Part shown: positions 1-14,097 of the stretch, one piece after another
Position numbering within the stretch: the stretch's first letter is position 1
How the letters are laid out: the number at the start of each line of letters is the position of its first letter
From: a virus
Taxonomy: Duplodnaviria; Heunggongvirae; Uroviricota; Caudoviricetes
Reading direction: 5' to 3' (one strand)
IMG/VR virus record: IMGVR_UViG_2531839662_000021
Coordinates: 1 to 14,097 of that record
DNA: 14,097 bases
Notes under the pieces: generated by a model
Database searches by the model: none
The model's input: only the letters and a program-made list of their open reading frames with translations
What the model was told of the DNA's origin: nothing
Translations under genes and position numbers: made by a program

Positions 1-348
1 TACATCATGGCGACGGATTCGTGGGGGTACTCCCGCGACGTGCGCTGTGAAGTGCTGGCCGGAAAGGTGATCAAACGCCTGCTGTCGTCGGATGCCACCG
101 GAGGCATGGGGGCTGAACGCATGGCTGCTGATGTGCGGGCAGACAACATTTACTCCGCCAGCCTCGACGGGCTGGGTGTCACCATGTGGGCGGTGACGTG
201 GGAGCAGGAATTTCGGCTGGATGAAGAGATTGATCTCGCCGCGCTCCCGGACTTCCTGCGCCTCGGGGCAACGCTGCGTAGCGGTGAACACACTGAAATT
301 AACGACGTGATCCATGTACGGGGTGACGATGGAACAGAAACTGATTAA
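1..348 (+). CDS. 5'-truncated CDS, C-terminal part of a Mu gp37 (K)-like tail completion/terminator protein
   Basis: ORF is in frame from base 1 (no start inside the window) and stops at 346-348. Position immediately upstream of the small gp38-like ORF and the sheath gene matches Mu late-operon synteny. Function inferred from synteny only. Confidence 0.5.
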   Translation, partial: YIMATDSWGYSRDVRCEVLAGKVIKRLLSSDATGGMGAERMAADVRADNIYSASLDGLGVTMWAVTWEQEFRLDEEIDLAALPDFLRLGATLRSGEHTEINDVIHVRGDDGTETD

Positions 349-514
349 GCCAGCGCGGGAAAACGTCCGTGTCCGTAAACCGGATGGCGCGCATTTATCC
401 CCGGAAGGGGAACGTCTCGACGTCTGCGCTTACTGGCTGCGCCGTGAAGCCGAGGGAGATGTGGAAATAACCGCGCTTCCGAAAAATAGCAACAAAAACA
501 GAGGGAAAAAATAA
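329..514 (+). CDS. small conserved tail-region protein, Mu gp38-like
   Basis: 61-aa ORF (MEQKLIKPAREN...). ATG at 329 is preceded by a GGGGTGA Shine-Dalgarno-like motif; the ORF track's start at 314 has no good RBS. Its stop overlaps the sheath ATG (TAATG at 512-516). Small gene between K-like and L-like genes as in Mu. Confidence 0.5.
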   Translation: MEQKLIKPARENVRVRKPDGAHLSPEGERLDVCAYWLRREAEGDVEITALPKNSNKNRGKK

Positions 515-1990
515 TGTCGCTGGGTTCAATTCCTGATGATATCCGCGTCCCGCTTGTCTGGATCGATATCGACAATTCACAGGTGCTGGATGGTGCATCC
601 GCGCAAAGCCGAAAAATTCTGGTCATGGGCCATGCGGTATCGTCCGGCAGCGCAGACGCCCTGTCACTGACCCGCATCACCAGTGACAGCCAGGCAGACC
701 AGCTTTATGGCAAAGGGTCGATGCTGGCTGAAATGCTCAAAATGCTGCGTCGTGCCAACACGTACACGGAAACCTGGGCTATGCCGGTTGCCGCGCCTGA
801 AGGCGCTGCCGCAAAAGCCACGCTGACCGTGCTGGGTACAGCGACTGAAGCCGGAACGGTGGCACTGCTGATTAACGGTGTGTCCGTTCAGGTGAGCGTG
901 AGCGCCGGGGCTACGAAGGAAAACATTGCAAAAGCCATTGCTGATGCGGTGACGAAAAAGCCTGCCACGCAGGTGGCCGCTGCGGTGAAGGATGATGCCA
1001 CGGATACCGTGGAGCTGACCGTGAACTGGCACGGCGTCACCGGCAACGGTGCCGACGTTCGCCTGAACTACTACACCGGTGAAGCCTTCCCGGCTGGTGT
1101 GAAGGTGACCGCTACTGCGTTTACCGGCGGCACCGGGACACCGGAAATGGCGGATGCCGTTGCGGCCATCGGCCCGGAGTGGTTTACCGATATCATCGCC
1201 CCGTTCACCGACACGAAAAGCCTGAACACCCTGCGTGATGAACTGCTGAACCGCTGGGGGCCGCTCAAAATGATGGAGGCGCAGCTGTGGACGGCGTTTC
1301 GTGGCACGCACGGCGAGACAGGCACGTTTGGTGAAACCCGCAATGACTGGCTGATTAGCTGTATTGGCACCAACCTGTCACCGCACCCGGCGTGGATGTG
1401 GGCCGCGTCATACGGCGCAACGGCAGCGTATCACCTTTGCCATTGACCCGGCGCGTCCGCTTCAGACGCTGGTCCTGACCGGCATTCTGCCGCCTGCGCG
1501 TAATGTTCGCTGGGATATGCCGGAACGTAACCTGCTGCTGCATGACGGCATTGCCACACACATGGTGGACGCCGGGGATAACGTCTGCATCGAGCGTGAA
1601 ATCACCATGTACCGGGTTAATCAGTACGGTGATGCGGATGTGTCGTACCTTGATGTGCAGTCACCCGCCACGCTGGGCCGTATCCGTTACATCATCAAAA
1701 ATCGTTTCACGAACCGTTATCCGCGCCATAAGCTGGCGGACGATGACGTGCTGGACTCACTGGATGCCGGTCAGCCGGTGATGACGCCGAAGCTGTGCAC
1801 CGCAGAGCTGCTGGATATCTGCCAGACCGAACTTATTCCTGCGGGCCTTGTGGAGAACTTCAGCGATTACAAGGACACGCTTCAGGTGACACGCGACAGC
1901 AGCGATAAAAACCGTCTGAACTTTATCTGCCACCCGAATCTGGTGAACCAGCTGCGTGTGCTGGCAGGCCTGATTCAGTTCAAACTTTAA
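514..1990 (+). pseudogene. contractile tail sheath protein (Mu gpL-like), reading frame disrupted by an apparent +1 frameshift near 1420-1440
   Basis: ORF 514..1446 (310 aa, starts MSLGSIPDDIRVPLVWIDID, GAGGGA RBS upstream) continues as protein-like sequence in the next frame (ITFAIDPARPLQTLVLTG... to stop at 1988-1990). Combined span is 1477 nt, one base more than a multiple of three; an intact gene would be about 491 aa, the typical sheath size. The frame-2 ORF upstream of about 1425 is Arg-rich junk. Confidence 0.75.
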
Positions 1991-1999
1991 GGGGGCCGC

Positions 2000-2356
2000 A
2001 TGGCAAAAATTCTTGGCATGGCGACCATTCGCGTGAATGGCCGCGAAATTAAAACCGAGGGGAAATCCACGCTGAATCCGGGCGGCTTCAGTCGCACCCA
2101 GCATATGGGCGGCGGCAAGGTCTGGGGCATCTCCAGCAAGATGGCCTCGCCGTCCATCAAGGTGACCATTGCGGCGGCAGCGGATATGGACGTGATTGAA
2201 ATCAGCAGCTGGGAAGACGTCACGGTGATGTTCTACGGCGACAATGGCCTGAACTACATGATGACGGGTTCCGCCACGGATAACCCGGCGGAGCTGGACG
2301 AGGATTCCGGCACCATCAGTGCCAACTTTATCGGTGAAAAATGCGTGAAGGTGTGA
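2000..2356 (+). CDS. tail tube protein (Mu gpM-like)
   Basis: 118-aa ORF directly after the sheath gene with AAGGGGG RBS 6 nt upstream of ATG; size and position typical of myovirus tube proteins. Confidence 0.75.
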   Translation: MAKILGMATIRVNGREIKTEGKSTLNPGGFSRTQHMGGGKVWGISSKMASPSIKVTIAAAADMDVIEISSWEDVTVMFYGDNGLNYMMTGSATDNPAELDEDSGTISANFIGEKCVKV

Positions 2357-2357
2357 C

Positions 2358-2753
2358 ATGGCTGAAATGACATTTGAACTGAAACACGGGCTTCTGACCG
2401 GCAAAGGCACGGCAGATGAAACCCTGCATAAAACCGTGAAACTGCGCGAACTGACCGCCAGCGACGTGATTGATGCACAACTGGCCGCAGAACGCGTCGT
2501 CATGGGCGGGAACGGAAAGGCGGTGGCCTACTGCTCGGAAGTGCTGATGGGGCTGGAGATGATGCGCCGTCAGGTTGCGGCCATCGGCAGCATTCCCGGC
2601 CCGCTGGACATGAAACAGCTGCGAATGCTCCACCCGGCAGACCTTGAGCTTATCAGCACGAAAGCCGCTGCGCTGGATGACATGCTTGAGGAGGTGGCAA
2701 CGCGGGGGCGACCTGATGCCGCTGGCGGCGGCACTGATGAACCTGCTGGTTAA
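2358..2753 (+). CDS. tail assembly chaperone (Mu gp41-like), short in-frame product
   Basis: 131-aa ORF between tube and tape measure genes, the conserved position for tail assembly chaperones; ATG lies 1 nt after the tube stop. Confidence 0.7.
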   Translation: MAEMTFELKHGLLTGKGTADETLHKTVKLRELTASDVIDAQLAAERVVMGGNGKAVAYCSEVLMGLEMMRRQVAAIGSIPGPLDMKQLRMLHPADLELISTKAAALDDMLEEVATRGRPDAAGGGTDEPAG

Positions 2754-2853
2754 CCTGTCCCAGCGATTCAGCATTCAGTACCTGGAACAGCTGCCCCTGC
2801 GGCAGCTGTTCCGCCTGATAAAGCAACTGGAGAAACAGCATGGCAACAGGTAA
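2358..2853 (+). CDS. tail assembly chaperone frameshift fusion product (G-GT-like), putative -2/+1 shift at G-run 2704-2708
   Basis: A second frame is open from 2644 to the stop at 2854-2856 and overlaps the 3' end of the chaperone ORF; CGGGGGCGA at 2703-2711 is the candidate slip site. The extension ends 14 nt inside the tape measure gene start. Fusion would be about 165 aa. Confidence 0.45.
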
Positions 2854-4696
2854 CCGTCTCAGCACGGAAATCATGATCAACCTTGCCGGGAACCTGACCG
2901 CCAAAGCCCGGCAGTACGGCGCAAATATGTCGCAGTTCGCCCGGAACCATCAGAAGGCCATGCGCCTTGTCAAAGCCACAACGGAGGCCGCAGGACGCGG
3001 CCTTGATACGCTGGGCAACCGCTACACGGCAATGATAGCCGGGCTTGGCAGTAGCCTAACCATCAAACAGGTTGCCGATTTTGATGCGCAGATGCGCCGG
3101 ATGGGTACGGATGCCCAGTTAACCACTGAACAGGTAAAGACGCTTCACGACAAAATCAGGGATGTATCGAACCAGAAAGATATTCGTATTGATGCCTCTG
3201 CGCTTGGTCAGGGGGCCAGCGAACTTCTGGGGAAAACCGGTGATTATCAGTATGTGGTGGACAACCTCCGCAACATGGGGTTGATGATGCAGGCGTTCGG
3301 TGTTGACGGACAGGTTGCAGCCGGGCTGATGGCGCAGTTCTGGGAAAAAAACGTCCGGGGCGCTGATGCGGTCAGTAACATGATGGACAGGCTGTATTCG
3401 CAGTTCGCAGTGGGGTCTGTCAGCGTTGCCGATGTTGCCCGCGCAGCTCCGAAACTGTTTTCCATCATTCAGGATCAGGGACCGGAAGCCATTGCCCAGA
3501 TGGGGGCATTTGCTCAGGTGTTCGCCAAAAACAAAGGCAGCATTGATGAGACGGTAACCAGTATTCAGGCCATGTATGCCTCCCTGTCGGACAAAAAGAA
3601 CATCGAGTTCCTGAAAAAAAACGGCGTTGATGTTTTTGTCAAAGGCACAAAAGACATCAAAAAGCCCTATGAACTGATGATGGAAATCCTTAAACGGGCC
3701 AAATACGACCCGCTGAAACTTCAGGATGTGTTTGATCAGACCGGGATGCAGGGGATTAAGGCGCTGCTTAACCCTGAAAACCGGCAACTGATGGAACAAA
3801 TGATTTACGGCACGATTGATCTGGGTTCCACGCAAAAGGCCGCACAGACCAATGCCGAAGGCTTTAATGCTGCAATGCAATCACTGAATAACGAATGGCA
3901 ACGTTTTGCTGAAGGGCAACTGGCAAAGCCCGTTCAGGACCTGGCGGATGCGCTCAACAGCGTGGACCAGGATACCGTCCAGAACTGGTTGCAGGTGGGT
4001 AAATATATAGCGATTGCGCTGGGTGGCATTATCGCCATCAGAAAGACGTATCAGTTCGGTAAAACCATCCACGACATCATGAATCCCAAAGGGAAAGGCA
4101 AAGGGATTCCCGGTGGCATTACGGATGTTTTCGGCTCCGGTGTGATGCCGGTTTATGTGGTTAATATGGGCAGTGGCGGGATGAATGGTAATACCGGCGG
4201 TCTGCCGGATACACCGGATTCATCGCGCAATCCCCGTAACCCACGCAATCCTCGGGGTCCGGGTAACCGTGGAGGAAAGGCAGGTAAAGGCGCTGGCATC
4301 ATTACCGGTGCTCTGGAGTTTTACGATTTTCTGACCACGCAATACGCCCTGCCGGGTGAGGTTGACAGCCTTACAAAATCCGTTGCCGGTGATGCCAGCG
4401 CCAGCCCGTGGGAGCGCGAGTTCGCGCAACAGAGTCAGGACAATCAGAAAGCGCTCGAGTCCGTCTGGCGTAAGGTAACGGACTGGTTCAACTCGCTGGG
4501 TGACAAGAACATTGCCGACCCGCGACCGTGGGCAGGTATGCAACCCACACAGAATTATCCTTTCCTTCCGCAGCAATTGCAGGGGGAGATCCGTGTGGTG
4601 GTGGAAGGTGACGCCCGCGTGAAAAGCGTCAGAGTGGATCAACCCGGCGTCAGACTCAGTGCGCAGGCTGGCGTCACCAGCGTGGAGCAAGGGTAA
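2840..4696 (+). CDS. tail tape measure protein (Mu gpN-like)
   Basis: 618-aa ORF following the chaperone pair, GGAG RBS upstream; hydrophobic segment (WLQVGKYIAIALGGIIAI) and Gly-rich low-complexity C-terminal region typical of tape measure proteins. Confidence 0.8.
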   Translation: MATGNRLSTEIMINLAGNLTAKARQYGANMSQFARNHQKAMRLVKATTEAAGRGLDTLGNRYTAMIAGLGSSLTIKQVADFDAQMRRMGTDAQLTTEQVKTLHDKIRDVSNQKDIRIDASALGQGASELLGKTGDYQYVVDNLRNMGLMMQAFGVDGQVAAGLMAQFWEKNVRGADAVSNMMDRLYSQFAVGSVSVADVARAAPKLFSIIQDQGPEAIAQMGAFAQVFAKNKGSIDETVTSIQAMYASLSDKKNIEFLKKNGVDVFVKGTKDIKKPYELMMEILKRAKYDPLKLQDVFDQTGMQGIKALLNPENRQLMEQMIYGTIDLGSTQKAAQTNAEGFNAAMQSLNNEWQRFAEGQLAKPVQDLADALNSVDQDTVQNWLQVGKYIAIALGGIIAIRKTYQFGKTIHDIMNPKGKGKGIPGGITDVFGSGVMPVYVVNMGSGGMNGNTGGLPDTPDSSRNPRNPRNPRGPGNRGGKAGKGAGIITGALEFYDFLTTQYALPGEVDSLTKSVAGDASASPWEREFAQQSQDNQKALESVWRKVTDWFNSLGDKNIADPRPWAGMQPTQNYPFLPQQLQGEIRVVVEGDARVKSVRVDQPGVRLSAQAGVTSVEQG

Positions 4697-5970
4697 TGAC
4701 AACAGGCAAAGGCAAATGGGACGGACTGCGCGACGCCTCGTTTCGCGGTGTCCCCTTCTTTCTGGTGGATACGGAAGGCACCGGTGGCCGCAGGGCTATT
4801 CCCCGCGCGTATCCCCGGCGTGAAACCGCCTGGACGGATGATAACGGGGCCGTTCCCGGTCAACAGCAGATTAACGCAAAGCTGCCAGGTAAAAACTTCC
4901 AGGATGATTTAAACGCCCTTTTAGACGCGCTCAATACCCCCGGCCCCGGCGAGCTTATCCACCCGTGGTTCGGGATACAGACCGTACAGGTTGGCAAGGT
5001 CACCCATCGCCTCAGCACGGAGGAAGACGGCATTGCGTATGTCACTTTTGAAGTGTTTGAGGCAGGCGAGCGCCTGTTCCCGTCTGCGGCGGATAACACG
5101 CAGCAGGAAGTACTGACGGGTATTGATGCGGTAAAAGCGGCCATTGACGATGGCGACTGGTTCGGCGCACTCGACGGGCTGGGTGAGATGGCCGACAGCT
5201 TTCTGGCTGATATGGAAAACCTTGTGGCTAACCTGCCCACGTTACCGGCAGCACTGAATCAGTGGATGGACAGGCTGAACCATTTTAAGGAGATGGCCGG
5301 AACCATCATTGCCACACCGGGGCGTCTGGTCAGTGAGCTGTCCTCGTTCATCGACGGCGTGGTTGATCTGGTGACGGAACCACCCGAAGCACTGGCGGTT
5401 TACACGACATTACGCAACCAGTGGGCCGGAGAACGCGCCCGACAGGTTGCCACCGGCGCACTGCCGGAAGATATCACCGTGAAGCCAGGCAGCGTGGCAG
5501 ACGGCGAAATTGGCTTTGCTATCGGGCTGTCACCGGATTATCAGCCGGTATCTGTCAGTCTGCAGAAGAACATTGACGACTTCCGCCAGGTGGTTGTGCT
5601 GGAAACCCTGCTGGGACAGGCAAATGCCGTGGCCTCGATGACGTTCGATACCAGTGATGCGGCCTTATCTGCCGGTGACACGCTGGCGGCTGAACTGCAT
5701 GAGCAGGCGGTGGCAGCGGTGGAAAATAACCAGCGGGCATTGTGGCGAACGCTGCGCGATTTACGGCAGGCCGTGATTACGGATGCCCGCGAGCGTGCCG
5801 CCCGTCTGCCGGAAACCCGGCAGGTGACGCTGACCACAACCACATCTGCCGCATTGCTGGCATGGCGCGAGCATGGGGATACAAGCCGACGGGATGAAAT
5901 CGTGCAGCGTAACCGCCTGCGCCATCCGTCATTCATCCTGCCAACGCAACCAGTGGAGATTACCGACTGA
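4696..5970 (+). CDS. Mu gp43 (P)-like 'DNA circulation' baseplate/tail protein
   Basis: 424-aa ORF; N-terminus (KWDGLRDASFRGVPFFLVDTEG) resembles the DNA-circulation N-terminal family found after the tape measure gene in Mu-like phages; start overlaps the upstream stop (TAATG). Confidence 0.7.
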   Translation: MTTGKGKWDGLRDASFRGVPFFLVDTEGTGGRRAIPRAYPRRETAWTDDNGAVPGQQQINAKLPGKNFQDDLNALLDALNTPGPGELIHPWFGIQTVQVGKVTHRLSTEEDGIAYVTFEVFEAGERLFPSAADNTQQEVLTGIDAVKAAIDDGDWFGALDGLGEMADSFLADMENLVANLPTLPAALNQWMDRLNHFKEMAGTIIATPGRLVSELSSFIDGVVDLVTEPPEALAVYTTLRNQWAGERARQVATGALPEDITVKPGSVADGEIGFAIGLSPDYQPVSVSLQKNIDDFRQVVVLETLLGQANAVASMTFDTSDAALSAGDTLAAELHEQAVAAVENNQRALWRTLRDLRQAVITDARERAARLPETRQVTLTTTTSAALLAWREHGDTSRRDEIVQRNRLRHPSFILPTQPVEITD

Positions 5971-7040
5971 TGGAATCCGTGATTCTTACCGTTGACGGCA
6001 AATTGTGGGAAGGCTGGACGGAAATGTCCGTCAGCCGTTCCCTGAAGGCGATTGCCGGTGAGTTTGATCTCAGTGTGACAACCCGCTGGTCAGCGGCGGC
6101 ACCGCGCGTGATACGTGAGGGGCAACCCTGCACGGTCAGGCTGGGTGCGGATACCGTGCTGACAGGGTATATCGATGATTTTATCCCCAGCTATGACGCA
6201 GATAACGTGGAGATTCGCGTCATGGGGCGCGACAAAACCGGCGACCTGGTGGACTGCTCTGTGGTGCATTCATCCGGGAAATGGAAAGGCGTGCGGCTGG
6301 AACAGGTAGCGGCTGATGTCTGCCGCCCGTTCGGGATAGCCGTCATCACGGAAACCCCGACCGGGGAGGCGTTTGCGTCCGTTGTTCTGGAACAGGGTGA
6401 AACGGGCTTTGAACTGCTCGACCGGCTGGCAAAACAGCGCGGCGTTCTGCTGACGTCTGACGGCGCAGGTAACCTGATTATCACCCGCGCCTCTTCCGTT
6501 CGCGCGGGTGTGTCACTGGTGCTGGGGAAAAATATCCTCGCCGCCCGTGGGCGCTTCAGCTGGCGGGAGCGTAACAGCCAGTACATCATCAAGGGCACCA
6601 CCAGTGCCGGTGGCAAACTGTGGGACAGCCAGCCTGCCTCGATGGTGGGTGGTCGCCAGTACATCACCGAAGACCCGGAAATTAACCGTTACCGCCCGCG
6701 CATTCTGGTCAATGAAGACAGCCTGACCGTGGGCGGGGCCAGCATTCGCGGGGAATGGTACAAAGCCCGGATGCTGGGGGAATCCCGCACGACGGAAATC
6801 ACGGTGGCAGGCTGGCGCGAACAGGGCGACAGCGGCCCGCTGTGGCAGACCAATCGCCTTGTCGATATCGACGACAGCATTCAGAACCTGAAAACCACCT
6901 GGCTGATATCCGGGGTGACCTGGACGGATGGCGCACAGGGGCGGATGACGGTTCTGGCGCTGGTTCCGCCTGAATCACTGGATATGCCGGAAATGAAAGC
7001 GAAGACGAAGAAAACAAAGGCGGTGGCCACATGGGATTAA
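5970..7040 (+). CDS. baseplate hub protein (Mu gp44/Q-like, P2 gpD-like)
   Basis: 356-aa ORF in the conserved position; start overlaps the upstream stop (TGATG). Confidence 0.7.
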   Translation: MESVILTVDGKLWEGWTEMSVSRSLKAIAGEFDLSVTTRWSAAAPRVIREGQPCTVRLGADTVLTGYIDDFIPSYDADNVEIRVMGRDKTGDLVDCSVVHSSGKWKGVRLEQVAADVCRPFGIAVITETPTGEAFASVVLEQGETGFELLDRLAKQRGVLLTSDGAGNLIITRASSVRAGVSLVLGKNILAARGRFSWRERNSQYIIKGTTSAGGKLWDSQPASMVGGRQYITEDPEINRYRPRILVNEDSLTVGGASIRGEWYKARMLGESRTTEITVAGWREQGDSGPLWQTNRLVDIDDSIQNLKTTWLISGVTWTDGAQGRMTVLALVPPESLDMPEMKAKTKKTKAVATWD

Positions 7041-7567
7041 ACGCAATTGCCCGCCGTCTGCGGCTGCTGGTTGACCGTGCCGTTGTGCGCATGGTGTCTG
7101 ACAGTCTGGAGCGGCAGAACCTGCAAATCCAGACGCTGGCTGATGCCACCGACGACGACGTGGAACGCTTCCAGAACTACGGGTTTACTTCCGTTCCGCC
7201 GGAAGGTTCTGAAGCCATCGTGCTGGCCGTGGGCGGACGGCGTGACGGGCTGGTTGCCATCGCGGTGGAGGACAAGCGATGTCGCCCGAAAGGCCTGTCC
7301 CCCGGTGATGTCCGGCTGTATCACCAGGACGGTAAATCGCATATCACGTTAAAGAAAGGCGGAATTATTGAAATCACAGGAGAACAATTAAACGTTTCAG
7401 GGAAAACGGTAAATCTCACCGCCGACGAATTGCTGAATATTATCGGTAAACAAATGAAATTCGTCGGTCCCTGTGAATTTACTGCAGATGCCACAATCAA
7501 CGGTAAATCTTTCATCAAACACATTCATAAGGACGGCGACAATGAGAAGACATCACCGCCCATATGA
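7031..7567 (+). CDS. baseplate central spike / assembly protein V (Mu gp45-like)
   Basis: 178-aa ORF overlapping the hub gene by 10 nt; size and position match gpV-like spike proteins. Confidence 0.7.
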   Translation: MGLNAIARRLRLLVDRAVVRMVSDSLERQNLQIQTLADATDDDVERFQNYGFTSVPPEGSEAIVLAVGGRRDGLVAIAVEDKRCRPKGLSPGDVRLYHQDGKSHITLKKGGIIEITGEQLNVSGKTVNLTADELLNIIGKQMKFVGPCEFTADATINGKSFIKHIHKDGDNEKTSPPI

Positions 7568-8016
7568 CGACCGGAATCCGCTGGAATAATACTCTCTCAC
7601 GGGGTGACATCACCGTCACCCATAACGGCCTCTCACTGGATGAGGGGCTGGTCACTCAGGTTCTTATCTGCCTTTTCACTGATGCCCGTGCTGATGACGA
7701 TGATGTCATTCCAGATGGTTCCGGCGACCCGCGCGGCTGGCCGGGCGACACGTACAGCGATTTTTCGTGGGGTTCCCGCCTGTGGCTGCTTGAGCGCGAA
7801 AAACTGACGGAAGATGTCCGCCTGCGCGTGGAGGATTACGCGCGACTGTCCATGCAACCGCTGCTGCGGGCCGGTTACGCCCGTAACGCCACCGTCACGG
7901 CCAGAATCATCGTCCCTGACCGTATTGCCTTTCAGGTGGTGTTAACCCGCCCGGACAAAACCACGCTCACAATCGAAATCACCCGCCGATGGGAGGCCAC
8001 CATTAATGCCGTATGA
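7564..8016 (+). CDS. baseplate wedge protein, Mu gp46 (W)-like / T4 gp25-like
   Basis: 150-aa ORF with ATGA start/stop overlap with the upstream gene; Asp-rich motif (DARADDDDVIPDGSGDPRGW) characteristic of the GP46 family. Confidence 0.7.
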   Translation: MTTGIRWNNTLSRGDITVTHNGLSLDEGLVTQVLICLFTDARADDDDVIPDGSGDPRGWPGDTYSDFSWGSRLWLLEREKLTEDVRLRVEDYARLSMQPLLRAGYARNATVTARIIVPDRIAFQVVLTRPDKTTLTIEITRRWEATINAV

Positions 8017-9082
8017 AATCCCCTCGCTGGGCAAACTGATTGCCGACGGCGAAAAAGATATTGCGTATGAACTCGGTCTGCAAAAGCTGCCGCCTGTCAG
8101 TGTTGAGCAGGCGCTGAACGTGTCGTTCAGCAGTCAGGTCCGGGATTTATACGACCATCAGAGCTGGATTAAGGACCAGATAATCCCGTCCACCGCATCT
8201 GATGATGAAACCATTATCAAAACAGCAACGTATGAAGGGGTTATCCGCAAGCAGGCAACCTTTGCCAGCGGGCCGGTGACCTTCACCAGTCAGTCCCCCA
8301 TTCCGGCAGAAACCCGGATGCAGTCCGACACGAATCAGGTGTATCAGGTACTCACATCCGGCGAGGTACAGGACGGCGAGGTCACCGTCATCGTGCAGGC
8401 TGAAGAAGCCGGTGTGGCGGGCAATCTTGCTGCCGGTGCCGTGCTCACTCTGTTGTCCCCGCTACCCGGAACGGGCAGCACCGGCGCGGTGACTGAAAGT
8501 GGCATCACCGGTGGCGCAGACATCGAATCCATCGCAGAGCTGCTGGACCGTCTGCTGTATGTGCGCCGCAATCCCCCGGTGGGCGGTGCACTGCATGATT
8601 ACGTCATCTGGGCGCGTGAAGTGCCGGGTGTCAGCCGCGCGTGGGCATGGGATGCGTGGCACGGCCCCGGCACGGTCGGGCTGGCATGGCTTTATGATGA
8701 CCGTGAAGACATTATCCCCACACGGGACGACCTGAAGACAATGGAGCAGTATCTGTTCTGCCACAAACACCCTGCCACCGGCGTGATGGTGGGCAAACCG
8801 GGCGGCATCGAGGTCTGGCCGGTGCAGGTCAGGCTGAAGAAGCTCGACCTGTCCATCCGTCTGACACCGGACAGCCAGGCGAACAGGAACGCCGTCCGGG
8901 CAAACCTGACCGCATTGCAGAAAACGCTGGCCCCCGGTCAGATGCTGCCGGTGTCCTCGCTGCGCACGGCCATCGGTATGACGTCCGGTATCACGGATTA
9001 CTTCCTCAACATCGGGGAGGACACCACCAGTGATGTGGATGAGCTTATCACCATCGGGGAGGTGACATGGCTCACAGCGTGA
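8006..9082 (+). CDS. baseplate J-like protein (Mu gp47-like)
   Basis: 358-aa ORF overlapping the upstream gene by 11 nt; size and synteny match baseplate J family proteins. Confidence 0.7.
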   Translation: MPYEIPSLGKLIADGEKDIAYELGLQKLPPVSVEQALNVSFSSQVRDLYDHQSWIKDQIIPSTASDDETIIKTATYEGVIRKQATFASGPVTFTSQSPIPAETRMQSDTNQVYQVLTSGEVQDGEVTVIVQAEEAGVAGNLAAGAVLTLLSPLPGTGSTGAVTESGITGGADIESIAELLDRLLYVRRNPPVGGALHDYVIWAREVPGVSRAWAWDAWHGPGTVGLAWLYDDREDIIPTRDDLKTMEQYLFCHKHPATGVMVGKPGGIEVWPVQVRLKKLDLSIRLTPDSQANRNAVRANLTALQKTLAPGQMLPVSSLRTAIGMTSGITDYFLNIGEDTTSDVDELITIGEVTWLTA

Positions 9083-9651
9083 CGGAATGGCTGACCGCAC
9101 TGCAACAGGTCATGCCACGGGGTAAGGCATGGCCGCGTGATAACGACGCGGATTTAAACCGTTTTTTAAGGGCGCTTGCAGAGCGTTTAACCCGCGTTGA
9201 ATACGACGCCTCGCGTCTGCATGTGGAGATGCGACCGGAAACCACGCTCCAGTTGCTGCCGGAGTGGGAGCAATATCTGGCGCTGCCGGAATGCGGAATT
9301 GCCGCCACCACAACGGAAGCCCGCCGCCGGGCCGTGGTGGAGAAATACCGCCGCAAAGGCGGGCTGGCCACCTGGCAGATTGAAGCCGCTGCGGCGGCGC
9401 TGGGATTCACTATTAAGGTGACGGCCGTTCTGCCGCACCACTGCCTGCGTGACTGCATGTACCCGCTACATCCGGCGCGGTATCGCTGGCTGCTGAAAGT
9501 GGAAGTCCCGGACAAAGATGCCGGGCGGTTTACCTGTATTGATGACGTCATGACGCCATTAATCAGCGAACGGACCCGCGAGCTGGAATGCCTGCTGAAG
9601 CATTACCGGCTGGCGGGCACGGAATATGAATATTATTACACCGGAGAATAA
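9067..9651 (+). CDS. tail/baseplate protein Mu gp48-like (P2 gpI-like)
   Basis: 194-aa ORF overlapping the upstream gene by 16 nt, immediately preceding the tail fibre gene as in Mu. Confidence 0.65.
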   Translation: MAHSVTEWLTALQQVMPRGKAWPRDNDADLNRFLRALAERLTRVEYDASRLHVEMRPETTLQLLPEWEQYLALPECGIAATTTEARRRAVVEKYRRKGGLATWQIEAAAAALGFTIKVTAVLPHHCLRDCMYPLHPARYRWLLKVEVPDKDAGRFTCIDDVMTPLISERTRELECLLKHYRLAGTEYEYYYTGE

Positions 9652-9654
9652 TTT

Positions 9655-10542
9655 ATGTTTCATGTGGATAATCCGACGGGTGTGCCAGTGATGCCACCTG
9701 TCGCGGCTGAATTAAGCAAAACAACGCTTTATTTCACCGAAGGCGGGAACGGTATTCCGCCCACTTATCCGGGGCCGGACTGGTTTAATATTATTCAGTC
9801 TGAATTACTGAAAATTCTCGAAGAAGCCGGAATAACACCGGATAAAGCAGATACCGGTCAGATAATGGCAGCGCTGAAAAAACTGTTTATTACGAACAGT
9901 GGTTCAGCTGGTGCCATTGCCGGATTAACCGGTCAGAATAATACGTTCCCGTACTTTACGGGCGAAGACACAATGGCATTAACGCCGCTCAGTGCTTTTG
10001 TGCGCGGTATTCTCGGGAAAAACACAGCCGGTGAAATTATCGACGCGCTTTTATTACGTGACACGGTAAATAAAGCTAATAGTGCTGTACCGAATACCCG
10101 CAGGGTCAACGGCATGGCTCTGTCTTCGGATATCACCATCAGCAACATCAGCGGCAACGCCGGAACGGCAACCCGACTTCAGACGGCCCGCAGGATTAAC
10201 AATGTGCTGTTTGATGGCAGCCGCGATATCACGATTTCTGCGGGAATGTCACAAACTGAAGGTGACAACCGTTACCAGCAAAAAAACACGGCGTCAAAAG
10301 CCGGTAATGGCTGGTTTAAGGACACGTCCACCGGGGTGATTATTCAGTGGGGGTATCTCGGCAATGCCAGTGCCGGGCTGACGTTTCCGATATCATTTCC
10401 GTCAGCATGTACCAGCATCACTATTACCAACGCATACACCCGTGCTGATTACTCTATTTCCCTGAAATCGTTATCAGCAGCAGGTGCGACATTCAACAGC
10501 GAGAATAACGGCGTTATGTACTGGACAGCGATAGGGTATTAA
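9655..10542 (+). CDS. tail fibre protein (Mu S-like), module 1
   Basis: 295-aa ORF with GGAGAA RBS; directly follows the baseplate genes and is followed by an overlapping tail fibre assembly gene; more AT-rich than the upstream structural genes. Confidence 0.75.
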   Translation: MFHVDNPTGVPVMPPVAAELSKTTLYFTEGGNGIPPTYPGPDWFNIIQSELLKILEEAGITPDKADTGQIMAALKKLFITNSGSAGAIAGLTGQNNTFPYFTGEDTMALTPLSAFVRGILGKNTAGEIIDALLLRDTVNKANSAVPNTRRVNGMALSSDITISNISGNAGTATRLQTARRINNVLFDGSRDITISAGMSQTEGDNRYQQKNTASKAGNGWFKDTSTGVIIQWGYLGNASAGLTFPISFPSACTSITITNAYTRADYSISLKSLSAAGATFNSENNGVMYWTAIGY

Positions 10543-10982
10543 TGATGACTATTTATTTCAGCCCATCAACAAACGGTTTTTATCATTCTGGCCTTCAGGG
10601 TGATTATGAAAATGCGGGAACGTGGCCGAATGATTTACAGGAAATCACGGATGAAGAATATCAGAGACTGTTACAGGGCCAGACTGACGGTTTTATTATT
10701 GTATCTGGCGAAAACGGATATCCGGTATTAAAAGAACCCGTAATTAACTGGCAGCAGAAAGCGGAAACGCAACGCCAGCACCTGCTGGCTGAAGCAAGGG
10801 AAATCACCTCCGACTGGAAAACCGAGCTGGAGCTGGGCACCATCAGCGACGATGATAAAGCCCGTCTTACGCAGTGGATGGCATATATCAAAGCGGTAAA
10901 GGCACTGGATTTAAGCACCGTTACTGACGAAGACTCCTTTTATTCCATCAACTGGCCGGAGCGTCCCGATGCCGCAGCTTAA
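10542..10982 (+). CDS. tail fibre assembly chaperone (Mu U-like / Tfa), module 1
   Basis: 146-aa ORF with TAATG overlap to the fibre gene; size and position typical of Tfa/U chaperones. Confidence 0.7.
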   Translation: MMTIYFSPSTNGFYHSGLQGDYENAGTWPNDLQEITDEEYQRLLQGQTDGFIIVSGENGYPVLKEPVINWQQKAETQRQHLLAEAREITSDWKTELELGTISDDDKARLTQWMAYIKAVKALDLSTVTDEDSFYSINWPERPDAAA

Positions 10983-12576
10983 AGGTGTGATTAAAACGCC
11001 CACGGGAGAACCGCTGGGCGGCGCAACCATTACATTGACCTCCCTGCACAACCGCGCAGGGATTCTGAAAAGTGTTTTCAGCCATGTCACCACACAGAAC
11101 GGGGAATATGACTTCCCCGTTCTGCCGGGTGTGTACAGCGTTCGCCTGACACAAAGCACACAGCGCCTTTCAGAAATCGGTGTCATCCGCGTTTATGAAG
11201 ATTCAGCGGACGGTTCGTTGAATGATTTTCTGGGTGCAACCGATATTGACCTGCGCCCGGAAGCCCTGAAGAAATTCGAAGAGCTGGCGCAACAGGCGCA
11301 GCAAAGCGCAGAAGCCGCAGCGGAAAGCGAGCGACAGGCCGGGCAACATGTCGCTGATGCGCAGAAGATAAAGAAAGACTGTCAGACGCTGGCGGATAAC
11401 GTACAGCAGAACGCAGAAGCCGTAGCGGCCAGCAAACAGCACGTTGAACAGCTGGCCTCAGAAGTTGAGCTGAACGCCGGGCAGGTGCAGCAGGGCGTGC
11501 AGAATGTTACTGATGCGGTAAAAAAGGCGCAGCAGGCAGCAAAGGATTCTGCTGACAGTGCCACAGATTCGAAAAACAGTGCTGACAATGCGGCACTGAG
11601 CGAACAGAACGCACAAAAACACGCGCAGAAAGCTGAACAACACGAGCAGCAGACTAAACAATATGCGCAGGATGCAGCGACCGCCGCAGAATCAGCAGAG
11701 AACGCCAAAGGCGAAATTGACGAAATTCTGGAAGGTGGCTATCTCAAGATAAAAAACAACTTTCAGGAAATTGTTGATGCTGGCCCGTCAGCACTGGCTC
11801 AGGCCCAATGGAATTTACAGATTTCCGGGGTGAAAAATAAACAGGTAATTGCCACCCCTTATACATGGCCATCCAGAACTGAGTATGAACAAAGGGTGCA
11901 TCTGCCACTCGCCGGGGCTTACGGATTTGGCTACACATTTGAAGACCAAAGCCAGGGGCGAATAAATTTTAATGAGGGCTATACGGCGTCGTGGTGGTCA
12001 CAGTGGGCGAAACCTGGTCGTTATTACGTCAGCGCCAGTGATAAAGAATACCTCGCACCTGAAGGAGAAAGGTGGGGGATTGTTGATTTGCTGTGGCTTA
12101 ATGGCAGCGGATATAACGATGCTTCGAAGGTTCTGAAGATACTGGCTTTTTACGACTCAGACGGGCACTTACACATAGGCAAGCGCGTTGGTCAGAGCGA
12201 CTGGTCAATAAGCTGGCGCAAGCTGGCATCGCTCTCTGATGTCAGGGCCATGCTGTATTCATATATTTATAATAATTACAACAGAGAATGGCGAGACCCG
12301 GAACTGGGAGGTTTAATTCTGGCGTCATACCAGGGAACCGCAGACGGCGACACAAATATAAAAGTATCCCGTGGTCAGACTTATCCCGGCTCGCGACTCG
12401 CTCCTGTGGCGATAGAATGCCAGTTCACCCCATCCGGCACGTATGCTGCAACACCGCGATTCTACATTACCGGCTGCAAGAGCAAATCACTCCCCGGAAC
12501 TTATATTTCATTGTCTGGCGCGCCAACAACATACAGCGACCAGGCATTTGTTGCGCTATTCATGAGGATTGTATGA
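10969..12576 (+). CDS. second tail fibre protein with distinct N-terminal domain, long Ala/Gln-rich coiled-coil stalk and C-terminal receptor-binding region
   Basis: 535-aa ORF; N-terminus (MPQLKGVIKTPTGEPLGGATITLTS...) resembles prophage tail-fibre N-terminal domains; residues about 100-250 are strongly Ala/Gln/Glu/Lys-rich; followed by its own Tfa gene. Confidence 0.75.
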   Translation: MPQLKGVIKTPTGEPLGGATITLTSLHNRAGILKSVFSHVTTQNGEYDFPVLPGVYSVRLTQSTQRLSEIGVIRVYEDSADGSLNDFLGATDIDLRPEALKKFEELAQQAQQSAEAAAESERQAGQHVADAQKIKKDCQTLADNVQQNAEAVAASKQHVEQLASEVELNAGQVQQGVQNVTDAVKKAQQAAKDSADSATDSKNSADNAALSEQNAQKHAQKAEQHEQQTKQYAQDAATAAESAENAKGEIDEILEGGYLKIKNNFQEIVDAGPSALAQAQWNLQISGVKNKQVIATPYTWPSRTEYEQRVHLPLAGAYGFGYTFEDQSQGRINFNEGYTASWWSQWAKPGRYYVSASDKEYLAPEGERWGIVDLLWLNGSGYNDASKVLKILAFYDSDGHLHIGKRVGQSDWSISWRKLASLSDVRAMLYSYIYNNYNREWRDPELGGLILASYQGTADGDTNIKVSRGQTYPGSRLAPVAIECQFTPSGTYAATPRFYITGCKSKSLPGTYISLSGAPTTYSDQAFVALFMRIV

Positions 12577-13142
12577 TGCAGATTAAAGAAATCACCAGCC
12601 CCCGTTATACCGAATCCGGTGCGATTGACTGCGACGTTCTGTTTGAGGAAATGGAAGCCCCTGTTCCCTACACTGCCACGCCGGACGATACAGCGAAAAC
12701 CGGTCAGCAAATCTGGCAGGAACTGCAAAGCGGAAAATGGGGTGAAATAACCCCGTTTGCCGTCACGCCGGAACTTATCGCAGCGGCGAAGGATGCCAAA
12801 AAACGGGAGATTGAGGCATGGCGCACAGAACAGGAGGCGCAGCCATTCACGTTCGAATGGAACGGTCGTACCTGGAATGCTGGTCCCGATTCGATGGCTC
12901 GCATTGCGCCCGTGGCAATGGCCGCAAAAGTGGCAGGTGCACGGGCAACGCTGGGGTGGGGGGATGCAGCAAACAGCCTTGTCACCATGACAATGGCGCA
13001 GCTTCAGGAGCTGGCAGCAACAATGGCGCAGGCGCAAACCGAGCGCAATACTGTGATTTATCGTCGTCAGCGTGAGATGAAAGAGCAGCTTTCCCTGTTG
13101 ACCACACTGAACGAAATAAGAGCATTCACACCCGGCGATTAA
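12573..13142 (+). CDS. tail fibre assembly chaperone (Tfa), module 2
   Basis: 189-aa ORF starting at ATGATG with GAGG RBS and ATGA overlap with the fibre stop. The longer ORF from 12288 in the track is a junk-like upstream extension. Confidence 0.7.
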   Translation: MMQIKEITSPRYTESGAIDCDVLFEEMEAPVPYTATPDDTAKTGQQIWQELQSGKWGEITPFAVTPELIAAAKDAKKREIEAWRTEQEAQPFTFEWNGRTWNAGPDSMARIAPVAMAAKVAGARATLGWGDAANSLVTMTMAQLQELAATMAQAQTERNTVIYRRQREMKEQLSLLTTLNEIRAFTPGD

Positions 13143-13265
13143 ATAATCATTTTGTATAGTTTATGACGATCGATAACATCATATCGATCGTCGGTTTGCA
13201 TCATATGTGATTAAATACCCCCAGCCCTCCGGGCGGTCATGTCTGGTTATTACACAGGGGGAATC
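13143..13265 (+). promoter_or_regulatory. mom-operon control region (Pmom-like): perfect 11-bp inverted repeat carrying two GATC Dam sites, G+C-rich element, com RBS
   Basis: GACGATCGATA (13165-13175) and TATCGATCGTC (13182-13192) are exact reverse complements separated by 6 bp; GATC at 13168-13171 and 13186-13189. Downstream ATACCCCCAGCCCTCCGGGCGG and AGGGGG RBS precede the com ATG. In Mu, Pmom is controlled by Dam methylation of upstream GATC sites and by the C activator. Confidence 0.55.
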
Positions 13266-13451
13266 ATGGACTCTGTTCGCTGTAAAAACTGCAATAAATT
13301 ACTGTTTAAAGGAGGTTTTAAGCATATAGAAATTAAATGCCCTCGCTGTAAACGTTACATTGTCATATCGAATGCCAAAGAGCATCCCACGGAGCTGTAT
13401 TGTGGGAAAAGAGAAGAAATCACGCATTCTGACAAAACCCTGCGTTATTGA
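13266..13451 (+). CDS. com: Com, zinc-finger translational activator of mom
   Basis: 61-aa product [33 protein letters not shown]...HSDKTLRY with CxxC...CxxC zinc-finger spacing, closely resembling Mu Com as I remember it; AGGGGG RBS 6 nt upstream of ATG; 3' end overlaps mom. Confidence 0.85.
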
Positions 13452-14097
13452 GTATGAAGGTCGTATTGTCGGCTATGGTTCAAAGGAGCTACGTGTTGAA
13501 ACCATATCCTGCTGGCTGGCCCGCACAATCATTCAGACAAAACACTATTCCCGCCGTTTTGTGAATAACTCCTACCTGCATCTTGGCGTATTCAGCGGAC
13601 GTGATCTGGTTGGCGTTCTTCAGTGGGGATATGCCCTTAACCCCAACTCAGGGCGTCGGGTCGTGCTTGAAACGGATAACCGGGGCTATATGGAACTGAA
13701 CCGCATGTGGCTACACGACGACATGCCCCGCAACTCTGAATCACGGGCTATCAGCTACGCGCTGAAAGTTATCAGGTTACTGTATCCGTCAGTTGAGTGG
13801 GTTCAGTCTTTTGCAGACGAACGCTGCGGACGTGCTGGCGTGGTATATCAGGCGTCGAATTTTGATTTTATTGGTAGCCATGAAAGCACGTTCTACGAGC
13901 TGGACGGCGAGTGGTATCACGAGATAGCGATGAACGCGATTAAGCGCGGAGGGCAACGAGGCGAGTATTTGCGGGCTAATAAGGAGCGGGCCGTGGTACA
14001 CAAATTTAATCAGTATCGCTACATCAGGTTCCTGAACAAGCGCGCAAAAAAGCGCCTAAACACCAAGCTATTCAGGATTCAGCCATACCCGAAGTGA
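13402..14097 (+). CDS. mom: Mom DNA modification protein (adenine modification, anti-restriction)
   Basis: ORF in a different frame overlapping the com 3' end and running to the window end (stop 14095-14097). GTG at 13402 is preceded by GGAG (13391-13394) and gives 231 aa, the length I recall for Mu Mom. An in-frame ATG at 13372 (241 aa) is an alternative start. Confidence 0.8.

Follow-up and report, generated by a model that had tools for sequence, protein, structure and literature searches.

A putative diverged Mu-type mom control region with a C-type activator box in a Mu-like prophage lineage of E. coli

Introduction

How is mom turned on in a Mu-like phage whose DNA upstream of com gives no BLAST alignment with that of Mu? 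mom is a toxic anti-restriction gene, and its silencing in Mu, which combines an activator, DNA methylation, and a translational activator, is a textbook case. The DNA considered here, a stretch of 14,097 nucleotides (the window), matches E. coli UMNF18 at 100% and forms the right end of a transposable, Mu-like prophage there. Its com-mom DNA is 89% identical to Mu over 13276-14097. Similarity at this level to phages Mu, D108, and SfMu starts only at 13276, inside com, and the region 13143-13265 gives no alignment with Mu by BLAST. An initial annotation had proposed that this region holds an activator-dependent promoter with a G+C-rich element and an imperfect inverted repeat, the arms of which might either pair in the mRNA or mark an activator site.

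The com-mom cassette and its surroundings

The UMNF18 prophage is inserted between treA and dhaM and carries genes for a repressor, transposase, Gam, gp16, one Mor-family activator, a GH108 lysin, and Mu-like head and tail proteins, with com and mom at its right end. The com-mom control region, 13143-13265, is the 123 nt between com and a DUF4376 tail-fibre-assembly-like ORF that ends at 13142, directly 5' of com; in Mu, it is gin that lies upstream of com. Neither the gin invertase nor the invertible G segment is seen around 12576-13142, and tail-fibre and assembly gene pairs stand in tandem at 9655-10982 and 10969-13142. An inverted repeat within the DUF4376 ORF, GGGGTGAAATAACCCC (12741-12756), contains the motif ATAACCCC and scores 8.2 bits with the C-box matrix described below, probably by chance. 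The UMNF18 prophage (window positions 1-13142 correspond to 22651-35792 of its sequence, L002) looks defective: frameshifts are present in the baseplate and tail-fibre genes, and the N-terminus is missing from the sheath gene, which comes right after the major head gene. Its relative in E. coli VL40 (NZ_CM177011.1, 3661-3696 kb) is intact.

The elements of the locus are as follows.

13156-13192, unstranded: Dam/OxyR-type module, ATAG-N7-CGAT-N7-ATCA-N7-CGTC, with GATC at 13168-71 and 13186-89
13199-13202, unstranded: CATC, the degenerate counterpart of the third GATC of Mu-type mom promoters
13205-13224, plus strand: C-type activator box, ATGT-GATTAA-ATAC (13205-13218, an imperfect dyad) followed by CCCCCAG (13218-13224); assigned by homology, weight matrix, spacing, and low diversity
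13224-13234, unstranded: G+C-rich dyad GCCC-TCC-GGGC, specific to the promoter type of the window, where Mu has a poor -35 and a T-rich spacer
13235-13246, unstranded: unconstrained spacer, 10 of 12 columns variable, covering most of the predicted -10 position (13242-13248)
13248-13253, plus strand: TATTAC, candidate -10, inside TTATTACACA
13257-13261, plus strand: G run GGGGG, the com Shine-Dalgarno sequence, 4 nt before the ATG
13266-13451, plus strand: com, 61-aa zinc-finger translational activator of mom (in the ORF list; annotated Com in RefSeq)
13386-13406, plus strand: mom translation-initiation hairpin, CCCACGG...UUGUGGG
13402-14097, plus strand: mom, DNA adenine modification enzyme, with a GTG start at 13402 as in Mu (the RefSeq start here is ATG 13372)

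com and mom overlap. In RefSeq, some genomes have mom starting at ATG 13372; others have the Mu-like GTG as its start. The hairpin at 13386-13406 encloses the GUG start codon, and the two-hairpin fold is that of the Mu sequence (L001 1594-1643); Com-dependent translation of mom has been described (PMC3378877, PMC6483171).

Copies of the 123-nt intergenic block, 85-98% identical, are present in 49 E. coli genomes. The conserved block begins at about 13140 whatever its upstream neighbour, be it a tail-fibre gene, a truncated pseudogene, IS3, an SGNH hydrolase gene, or plasmid IS elements; consequently, com-mom and its control region move together as one cassette. The promoter-com cassette is also found on plasmids of about 138-148 kb (pPS1T_138kb, L004 2815-3574; NZ_CP182221.1). 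The copy on pPS1T_138kb, the one plasmid inspected, lies among IS66/IS21 elements with both mom and the DUF4376 ORF truncated, and is thus a remnant in IS-rich DNA.

Constraint in the region upstream of com

Searches of genomes and viral contigs with mom yielded about 40 distinct com-upstream sequences. These comprise a Mu type, the type of the window (type W, with 20 distinct variants aligned), and others (L013-L015 and L054-L059). A degenerate pattern search of metagenome contigs for more distant type-W relatives returned only near-identical copies and chance matches, and a search of genome contigs gave four loci, all of other promoter types and none of type W.

All non-W types share one order: a GATC cluster, a box reading (A/G)TAA(A/C)CCC, a TAnnnT hexamer 27-28 nt later (TAAGAT, TATCCT, TAAACT, TAGAAT, or TACTAT), and, before the com ATG, a leader of about 11-32 nt that contains a G-rich ribosome-binding site. 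Their box-to-(-10) geometry is the same as that in the four Mu late promoters, and it agrees with the 16-bp C dyad centred at -43.5 that has been described (PMC2582627). The sequences L055, L013 (Scandinavium), L014, L015 (Apirhabdus), L054, and L056 resemble the window in having the GATC cluster, the box, and the G-rich com ribosome-binding site, and in L013 the box-to-ATG distance is 50 nt, compared with 51 in the window. Unlike the window, all six have a clear TAnnnT 27-28 nt after ATAA and lack GCCC-TCC-GGGC.

Among the 20 type-W cassettes, nucleotide diversity (pi) is 0.04 in the GATC module (13155-92), the lowest value in the intergenic region, 0.058 in the box (13207-13224), 0.047 in the G+C-rich dyad (13225-13234), and 0.065 in TTATTACACA (13247-13256). 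It rises to 0.17 in 13193-13206 and to 0.26 in 13235-13246, which is about the silent-site level (0.21 at the 4-fold sites of mom). Purifying selection therefore acts block by block, diversity in the box, the dyad, and TTATTACACA being lower than at silent sites by a factor of 3-5, and the contrast inside the intergenic region is independent of how the sequences were chosen. Such a pattern, in which free spacers divide three or four constrained blocks, argues for protein-binding or promoter elements rather than one long RNA helix. The lengths of two homopolymers also vary among close relatives, the C run (13218-13222) from 3 to 6 and the G run (13257-13261) from 5 to 7, as expected from replication slippage; this variation could tune expression.

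The GATC module

A perfect 11-bp inverted repeat (13165-75 and 13182-92) carries both GATC sites, and its hairpin is strong (-16.5 kcal/mol, z = -4.6). In Mu (L001 1382 and 1400), the GATC pair is likewise 18 bp apart, within the motif ATAG-N7-CGAT-N7-ATTA-N7-CGGT. The Mu OxyR/Dam region lies within the 3' end of gin, whereas that of the window is intergenic. Since the control of Mu Pmom by OxyR and Dam has been described (PMC3378877), OxyR would, by analogy, be expected to bind the module of the window as well. The third GATC of Mu, L055, L014, L015, L054, and L056 falls in an ungapped alignment on the CATC at 13199-13202. The sequence TATAGT (13155-60) was considered as an upstream -10 and rejected; it more likely represents the ATAG contact of the OxyR-type motif, as the same distance from GATC is kept in Mu, inside gin.

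The C-type box and the G+C-rich dyad

In a MAFFT alignment, the window runs ungapped with Mu and L055 from the third GATC position through the box to the -10 position. The distance from the GATC module to ATAAC in Mu and to ATACC (13215-13219) in the window is exactly 22 nt. The type-W consensus of the box is TTGT-N6-ATAC; three variants (L041, L050, and L051) read TTAT-GATTAA-ATAC, which equals the Mu-type dyad, the Mu box being TTAT-N6-ATAA. Where the window has GATTAAATACCCCCAG, L055 reads GATTAATAACCCCAG. When a weight matrix was built from 10 C-type boxes, the box of the window scored 10.5 bits and ranked second among about 28,000 window positions. Leave-one-out matrices give 9.9 bits for Mu Plys and 10.0 for PI, and thus the box lies within the range of true C sites of Mu. 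Matrix scans of both prophages for further C-type boxes at late promoters returned, besides the com site, only background-level matches in coding DNA. Judged from its sequence, 13143-13265 is a diverged Mu-type mom control region, homologous to and colinear with Mu Pmom.

The G+C-rich element of the initial annotation, ATACCCCCAGCCCTCCGGGCGG (13215-13236), is thus a composite, in which ATACCCCCAG (13215-13224) is the promoter-proximal half of the C-type box and GCCC-TCC-GGGC a segment specific to type W. Both strings stand where the annotation had placed them, as does the dyad, in which G13224-C13227 pairs with G13231-C13234 around the loop TCC; the G-run arm of the inverted repeat, CAGGGGGAAT, lies at 13255-13264 rather than at 13254-13263. 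The activator site suggested for the repeat arms is supported for the C-run half, which is part of the C-type box; the dyad lies outside the conserved box of the family. The arms of the dyad are invariant in 19 distinct sequences except for a change of GGGC to GGGT in two, and the loop varies (TCC, TCA, or TCT). The dyad is missing from Mu, L013-L015, and L054-L056. Its predicted fold is not above chance (-7.5 kcal/mol, z = -0.73), and it was rejected as an intrinsic terminator: the sole terminator-like match is on the minus strand, and the plus-strand tail is UCAUGUCU.

The -10 region and the start site

As the initial annotation had noted, the region has no good sigma-70 -35. A consensus scan of 12900-13500 found 0 promoter-like sites (shuffled sequences gave 1.2 +/- 1.1, so that the depletion is not significant), and a search for -35/-10 pairs in 13143-13268 found none above 8 of 12 matches and, inside 13193-13265, none above 7 of 12. 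Furthermore, the position at which the Mu geometry would place the -10, 13242-13248, reads TCTGGTT, and no TAnnnT occurs 27-28 nt after the box half-site. Three variants (L006, L046, and L047, of the VL40 type) carry TATCCT at the equivalent of 13240-45. TATTAC (13248-13253) is the only conserved -10-like hexamer. It has 4 of 6 consensus matches, with the A at -11 present and the T at -7 absent. Its variants include TATTAT in L050 and L051, TGnTATTAC with a correctly spaced TG in L006 (VL40 type), and a form with a 2-bp deletion in L041.

TATTAC is accordingly taken as the candidate -10, from which a start site near 13260 is predicted. With that start, 13207-13234 would span about -53 to -26, which matches the region required by Mu Plys (-52 to -34) and the footprint of C (-55 to -30) (PMC2582627), and is the zone in which Mor and C classically leave their footprints. 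The centre of the C-type dyad would lie near -48.5, and the distance between dyad and hexamer would exceed that in Mu by 5 bp, or half a helical turn. Transcription would begin within the G run, and the com leader, only 5-7 nt long, would lack a Shine-Dalgarno sequence. G-rich ribosome-binding sites (GGGGGAG, GGAGGGGGA, and AGGAGG) precede com in the unrelated types L014, L054, L056, L013, and Mu. The sequence GCCCTCCGGG resembles GCCTCCGG and GCCTTCCG, which are found downstream of the Mor sites of the lineage, and is not in register with the dyads.

An activator box without C

The initial annotation had expected a C-like activator elsewhere in the prophage. A gene of the Mor/C family is indeed present outside the window, but it encodes a Mor orthologue: the single Mor-family protein of the UMNF18 prophage (WP_000812147.1) is 63% identical to Mu Mor and 32% identical to Mu C, and its recognition helix is nearly identical to that of Mor. 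No C-type activator was found in the UMNF18 prophage by tblastn, and in the intact VL40 prophage and sub-lineage B (L149), only the Mor orthologue, and no C gene, was found. Among long contigs, the type-W promoter occurs with the Mor orthologue and without C in 8 of 8 cases and the Mu-type promoter with C in 7 of 7, in a search that detects only fairly close relatives of C (down to 54% identity). In Mu, Mor does not activate C-dependent promoters, and the two proteins are mutually specific (PMC4287176).

The Mor-type (Pm-like) sites of the lineage consist of A[A/G]TGAAGCCGGTAAAT, a T run, and then CACCAT or CATACT; the UMNF18 prophage has only two, which precede the genes for the lysin and the protease. 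Upstream of the window, at L002 14306-14330 and 22033-22057 and before the same two genes, stands an exact 25-nt repeat, GAAGCCGGTAAATCCGGCTTTTTTT, which is nearly identical to the region of the Mu middle promoter Pm and early terminator. Late genes in this lineage thus seem to be transcribed straight from Mor-type promoters, the cascade having two tiers and no C. Permanganate data place the Pm start at the second A of AATAA, which yields AGTAAAGCCGGTTAAT as the Mor dyad and TATCCT as the -10 (PMC4287176). This register, in which a Pm-type -10 lies about 30 nt from the dyad centre, was used for all comparisons of Mor-type sites, and it rules out a GCCGG...CCGGC hairpin as the Mor site. A Mor-type site upstream of com was also rejected, as 4-5 of 16 positions match in register, there is no T run, and the right half is of the C type: it reads ATACC rather than the TAAAT of the Mor site in Mu Pm (PMC4287176). 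The Pm-like sites of the same prophage have the T run, which is missing from the box upstream of com, and also a NANNNT hexamer.

Although the box looks like a C site, the Mor orthologue, as the only Mor/C-family protein of the lineage, is the default candidate for the activator. That a lineage devoid of C should conserve a C-type box is the one unexpected feature of the locus. A tentative proposal, which is possible but doubtful, is that the box, held by purifying selection and in register with the Dam/OxyR module, persists in a lineage whose Mor-to-C cascade has collapsed to a single Mor orthologue. If so, the Mor orthologue may have acquired dual site specificity, against the strict separation of Mor and C in Mu; the mom cassette may answer to C supplied in trans by a Mu-type phage, either co-resident or superinfecting; or the box may have been taken over by a host factor.

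A model for com-mom expression and its alternatives

Taken together, these results suggest a model, in which confidence as a whole is about even. In this model, com and mom would be transcribed from a weak sigma-70 promoter that lacks a -35 and remains off before late lytic growth. The two GATC sites in 13156-13192 would form a repressor site of the OxyR type that is sensitive to Dam methylation, as in Mu. A dimer of the activator would bind the box at 13205-13224, with the adjoining conserved G+C-rich segment (13224-13234) occupying the -35 region, and would bring RNA polymerase to a -10 that is poor and most probably TATTAC (13248-13253). The predicted start, near 13259-13261, would give com a very short leader, and Com would then open the hairpin at 13386-13406, allowing mom to be translated. 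Homology to Mu Pmom, the missing -35, and the distribution of constraint make activator dependence plausible; the reading of the region as a diverged Mu-type Pmom that is activator-dependent, gated by Dam and OxyR, and equipped with a poor -10 is judged evenly poised.

Alternatively, com-mom may have no working promoter and be expressed by read-through, as the tail of a late operon transcribed from the Mor-type promoter that precedes the protease gene, the box being a leftover of a Mu-type ancestor or having another role. The arrangement of the locus would allow this, as com follows the DUF4376 ORF by 123 nt, gin and the G segment are absent, and no plus-strand terminator lies between the tail-fibre genes and com. 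The lack of a C gene in the lineage, the restriction of Mor-type sites to the two before the lysin and protease genes, and the evolution of the canonical -10 position, which holds no -10, at the silent-site rate all point in the same direction. However, diversity in the box, the dyad, and the GATC module is 3-5 times below that of silent sites, unlike in the neighbouring 12 nt, and hence the box is not decaying. In addition, the upstream block is retained where the cassette is away from tail genes (next to IS3 and on plasmids), and the 11-bp GATC hairpin would be carried in the RNA with no evident role. Read-through is considered rather unlikely, though a serious rival. A promoter that needs no phage activator is less probable still. 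Here, a weak sigma-70 promoter at TATTAC would be gated only by Dam and OxyR and perhaps by a host protein bound to the conserved TGTGATTAAATA, which contains, for instance, the CRP-like half-site TGTGA. The conservation of TATTAC, its improvement to TATTAT in L050/L051, and the correctly spaced TG of L006-type variants would fit such a promoter, as would the GATC module being the most conserved part of the region. The centre of TGTGA-N6 (13213.5) would, moreover, be at -41.5 if transcription started at 13255. CRP consensus half-sites are TGTGA on the left and TCACA on the right. A class II CRP site was rejected, since the right half of the putative site is poor (ACCCC versus TCACA) and TGTGA is changed to TATGA in three variants. 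Furthermore, the box is clearly homologous to C-type sites, which are activator sites in related phages, and TATTAC with neither a -35 nor an extended -10 in the window would be a very weak core promoter.

It had also been suggested that the C run and the G run pair in the mRNA; in the fullest form of this idea, the C-run side (13207-13222) would pair with the G run and AUG (13257-13267) and mask the initiation of com translation. Minimum free energy folds of both 13143-13300 and 13193-13290 do pair CCCCC with GGGGG, and the latter fold also pairs GUGAUU with AAUCAU. In the alignment, 96% of the cells are still pairable, and one-sided changes are mostly wobble-compatible. Moreover, the inverted repeat is, as described, the only pair of 10-mers with at least 8 of 10 complementary positions in 13193-13265. 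However, complementarity of 8 of 10 was matched in 45% of 2000 dinucleotide shuffles of these 73 nt, a repeat search returned only the GATC palindrome, and the fold of 13193-13290 has a z score of +0.54. There are no compensatory or double-sided changes, two covariation counts equal those of shuffled controls, and in 12 of 14 variants, the accessibility from the Shine-Dalgarno sequence to the AUG, computed for a read-through transcript, is not below that of controls with a shuffled upstream sequence (0.45 versus 0.39 for the window). In addition, the 5' arm would be transcribed only if the start lay upstream of 13207. C-rich boxes and G-rich ribosome-binding sites occur independently in other promoter types; because both are family traits, the two runs look like an inverted repeat. 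Control by such pairing is thus highly improbable: functional pairing is unsupported, and the complementarity is best taken as a by-product of an activator box and a Shine-Dalgarno sequence. A search of 13000-13600 against Rfam gave only SpF39, below threshold (25 bits versus a gathering score of 60), which is irrelevant here.

Relation to Mu and significance

The closest known system to the activator-dependent promoter proposed here is Mu Pmom, a C-dependent late promoter under Dam/OxyR control (PMC2582627, PMC3378877, PMC4461284). Like the region in the window, Pmom lies directly 5' of overlapping com and mom genes, has no usable -35, and has a TT(A/G)T-N6-ATA(A/C) dyad followed by C residues; a Com-dependent mom initiation hairpin is also common to both. 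In contrast to Mu, the window has two GATC sites instead of three, a weaker left half-site (ATGT), a G+C-rich dyad in place of the ACCACA/T6 spacer, and a com leader that is about 13 nt shorter, with no gin upstream and no C gene in the phage.

The control region of com-mom moves as a cassette between Mu-like lineages, and one lineage retains the C-type box and the Dam/OxyR module even though it lacks C and a canonical -10. If the box does not work, this would be an ordinary diverged promoter. If it does, the lineage would provide a natural test of how a mobile cassette for a toxic gene is rewired to another regulatory cascade and of how strict the site specificity of Mor and C is.
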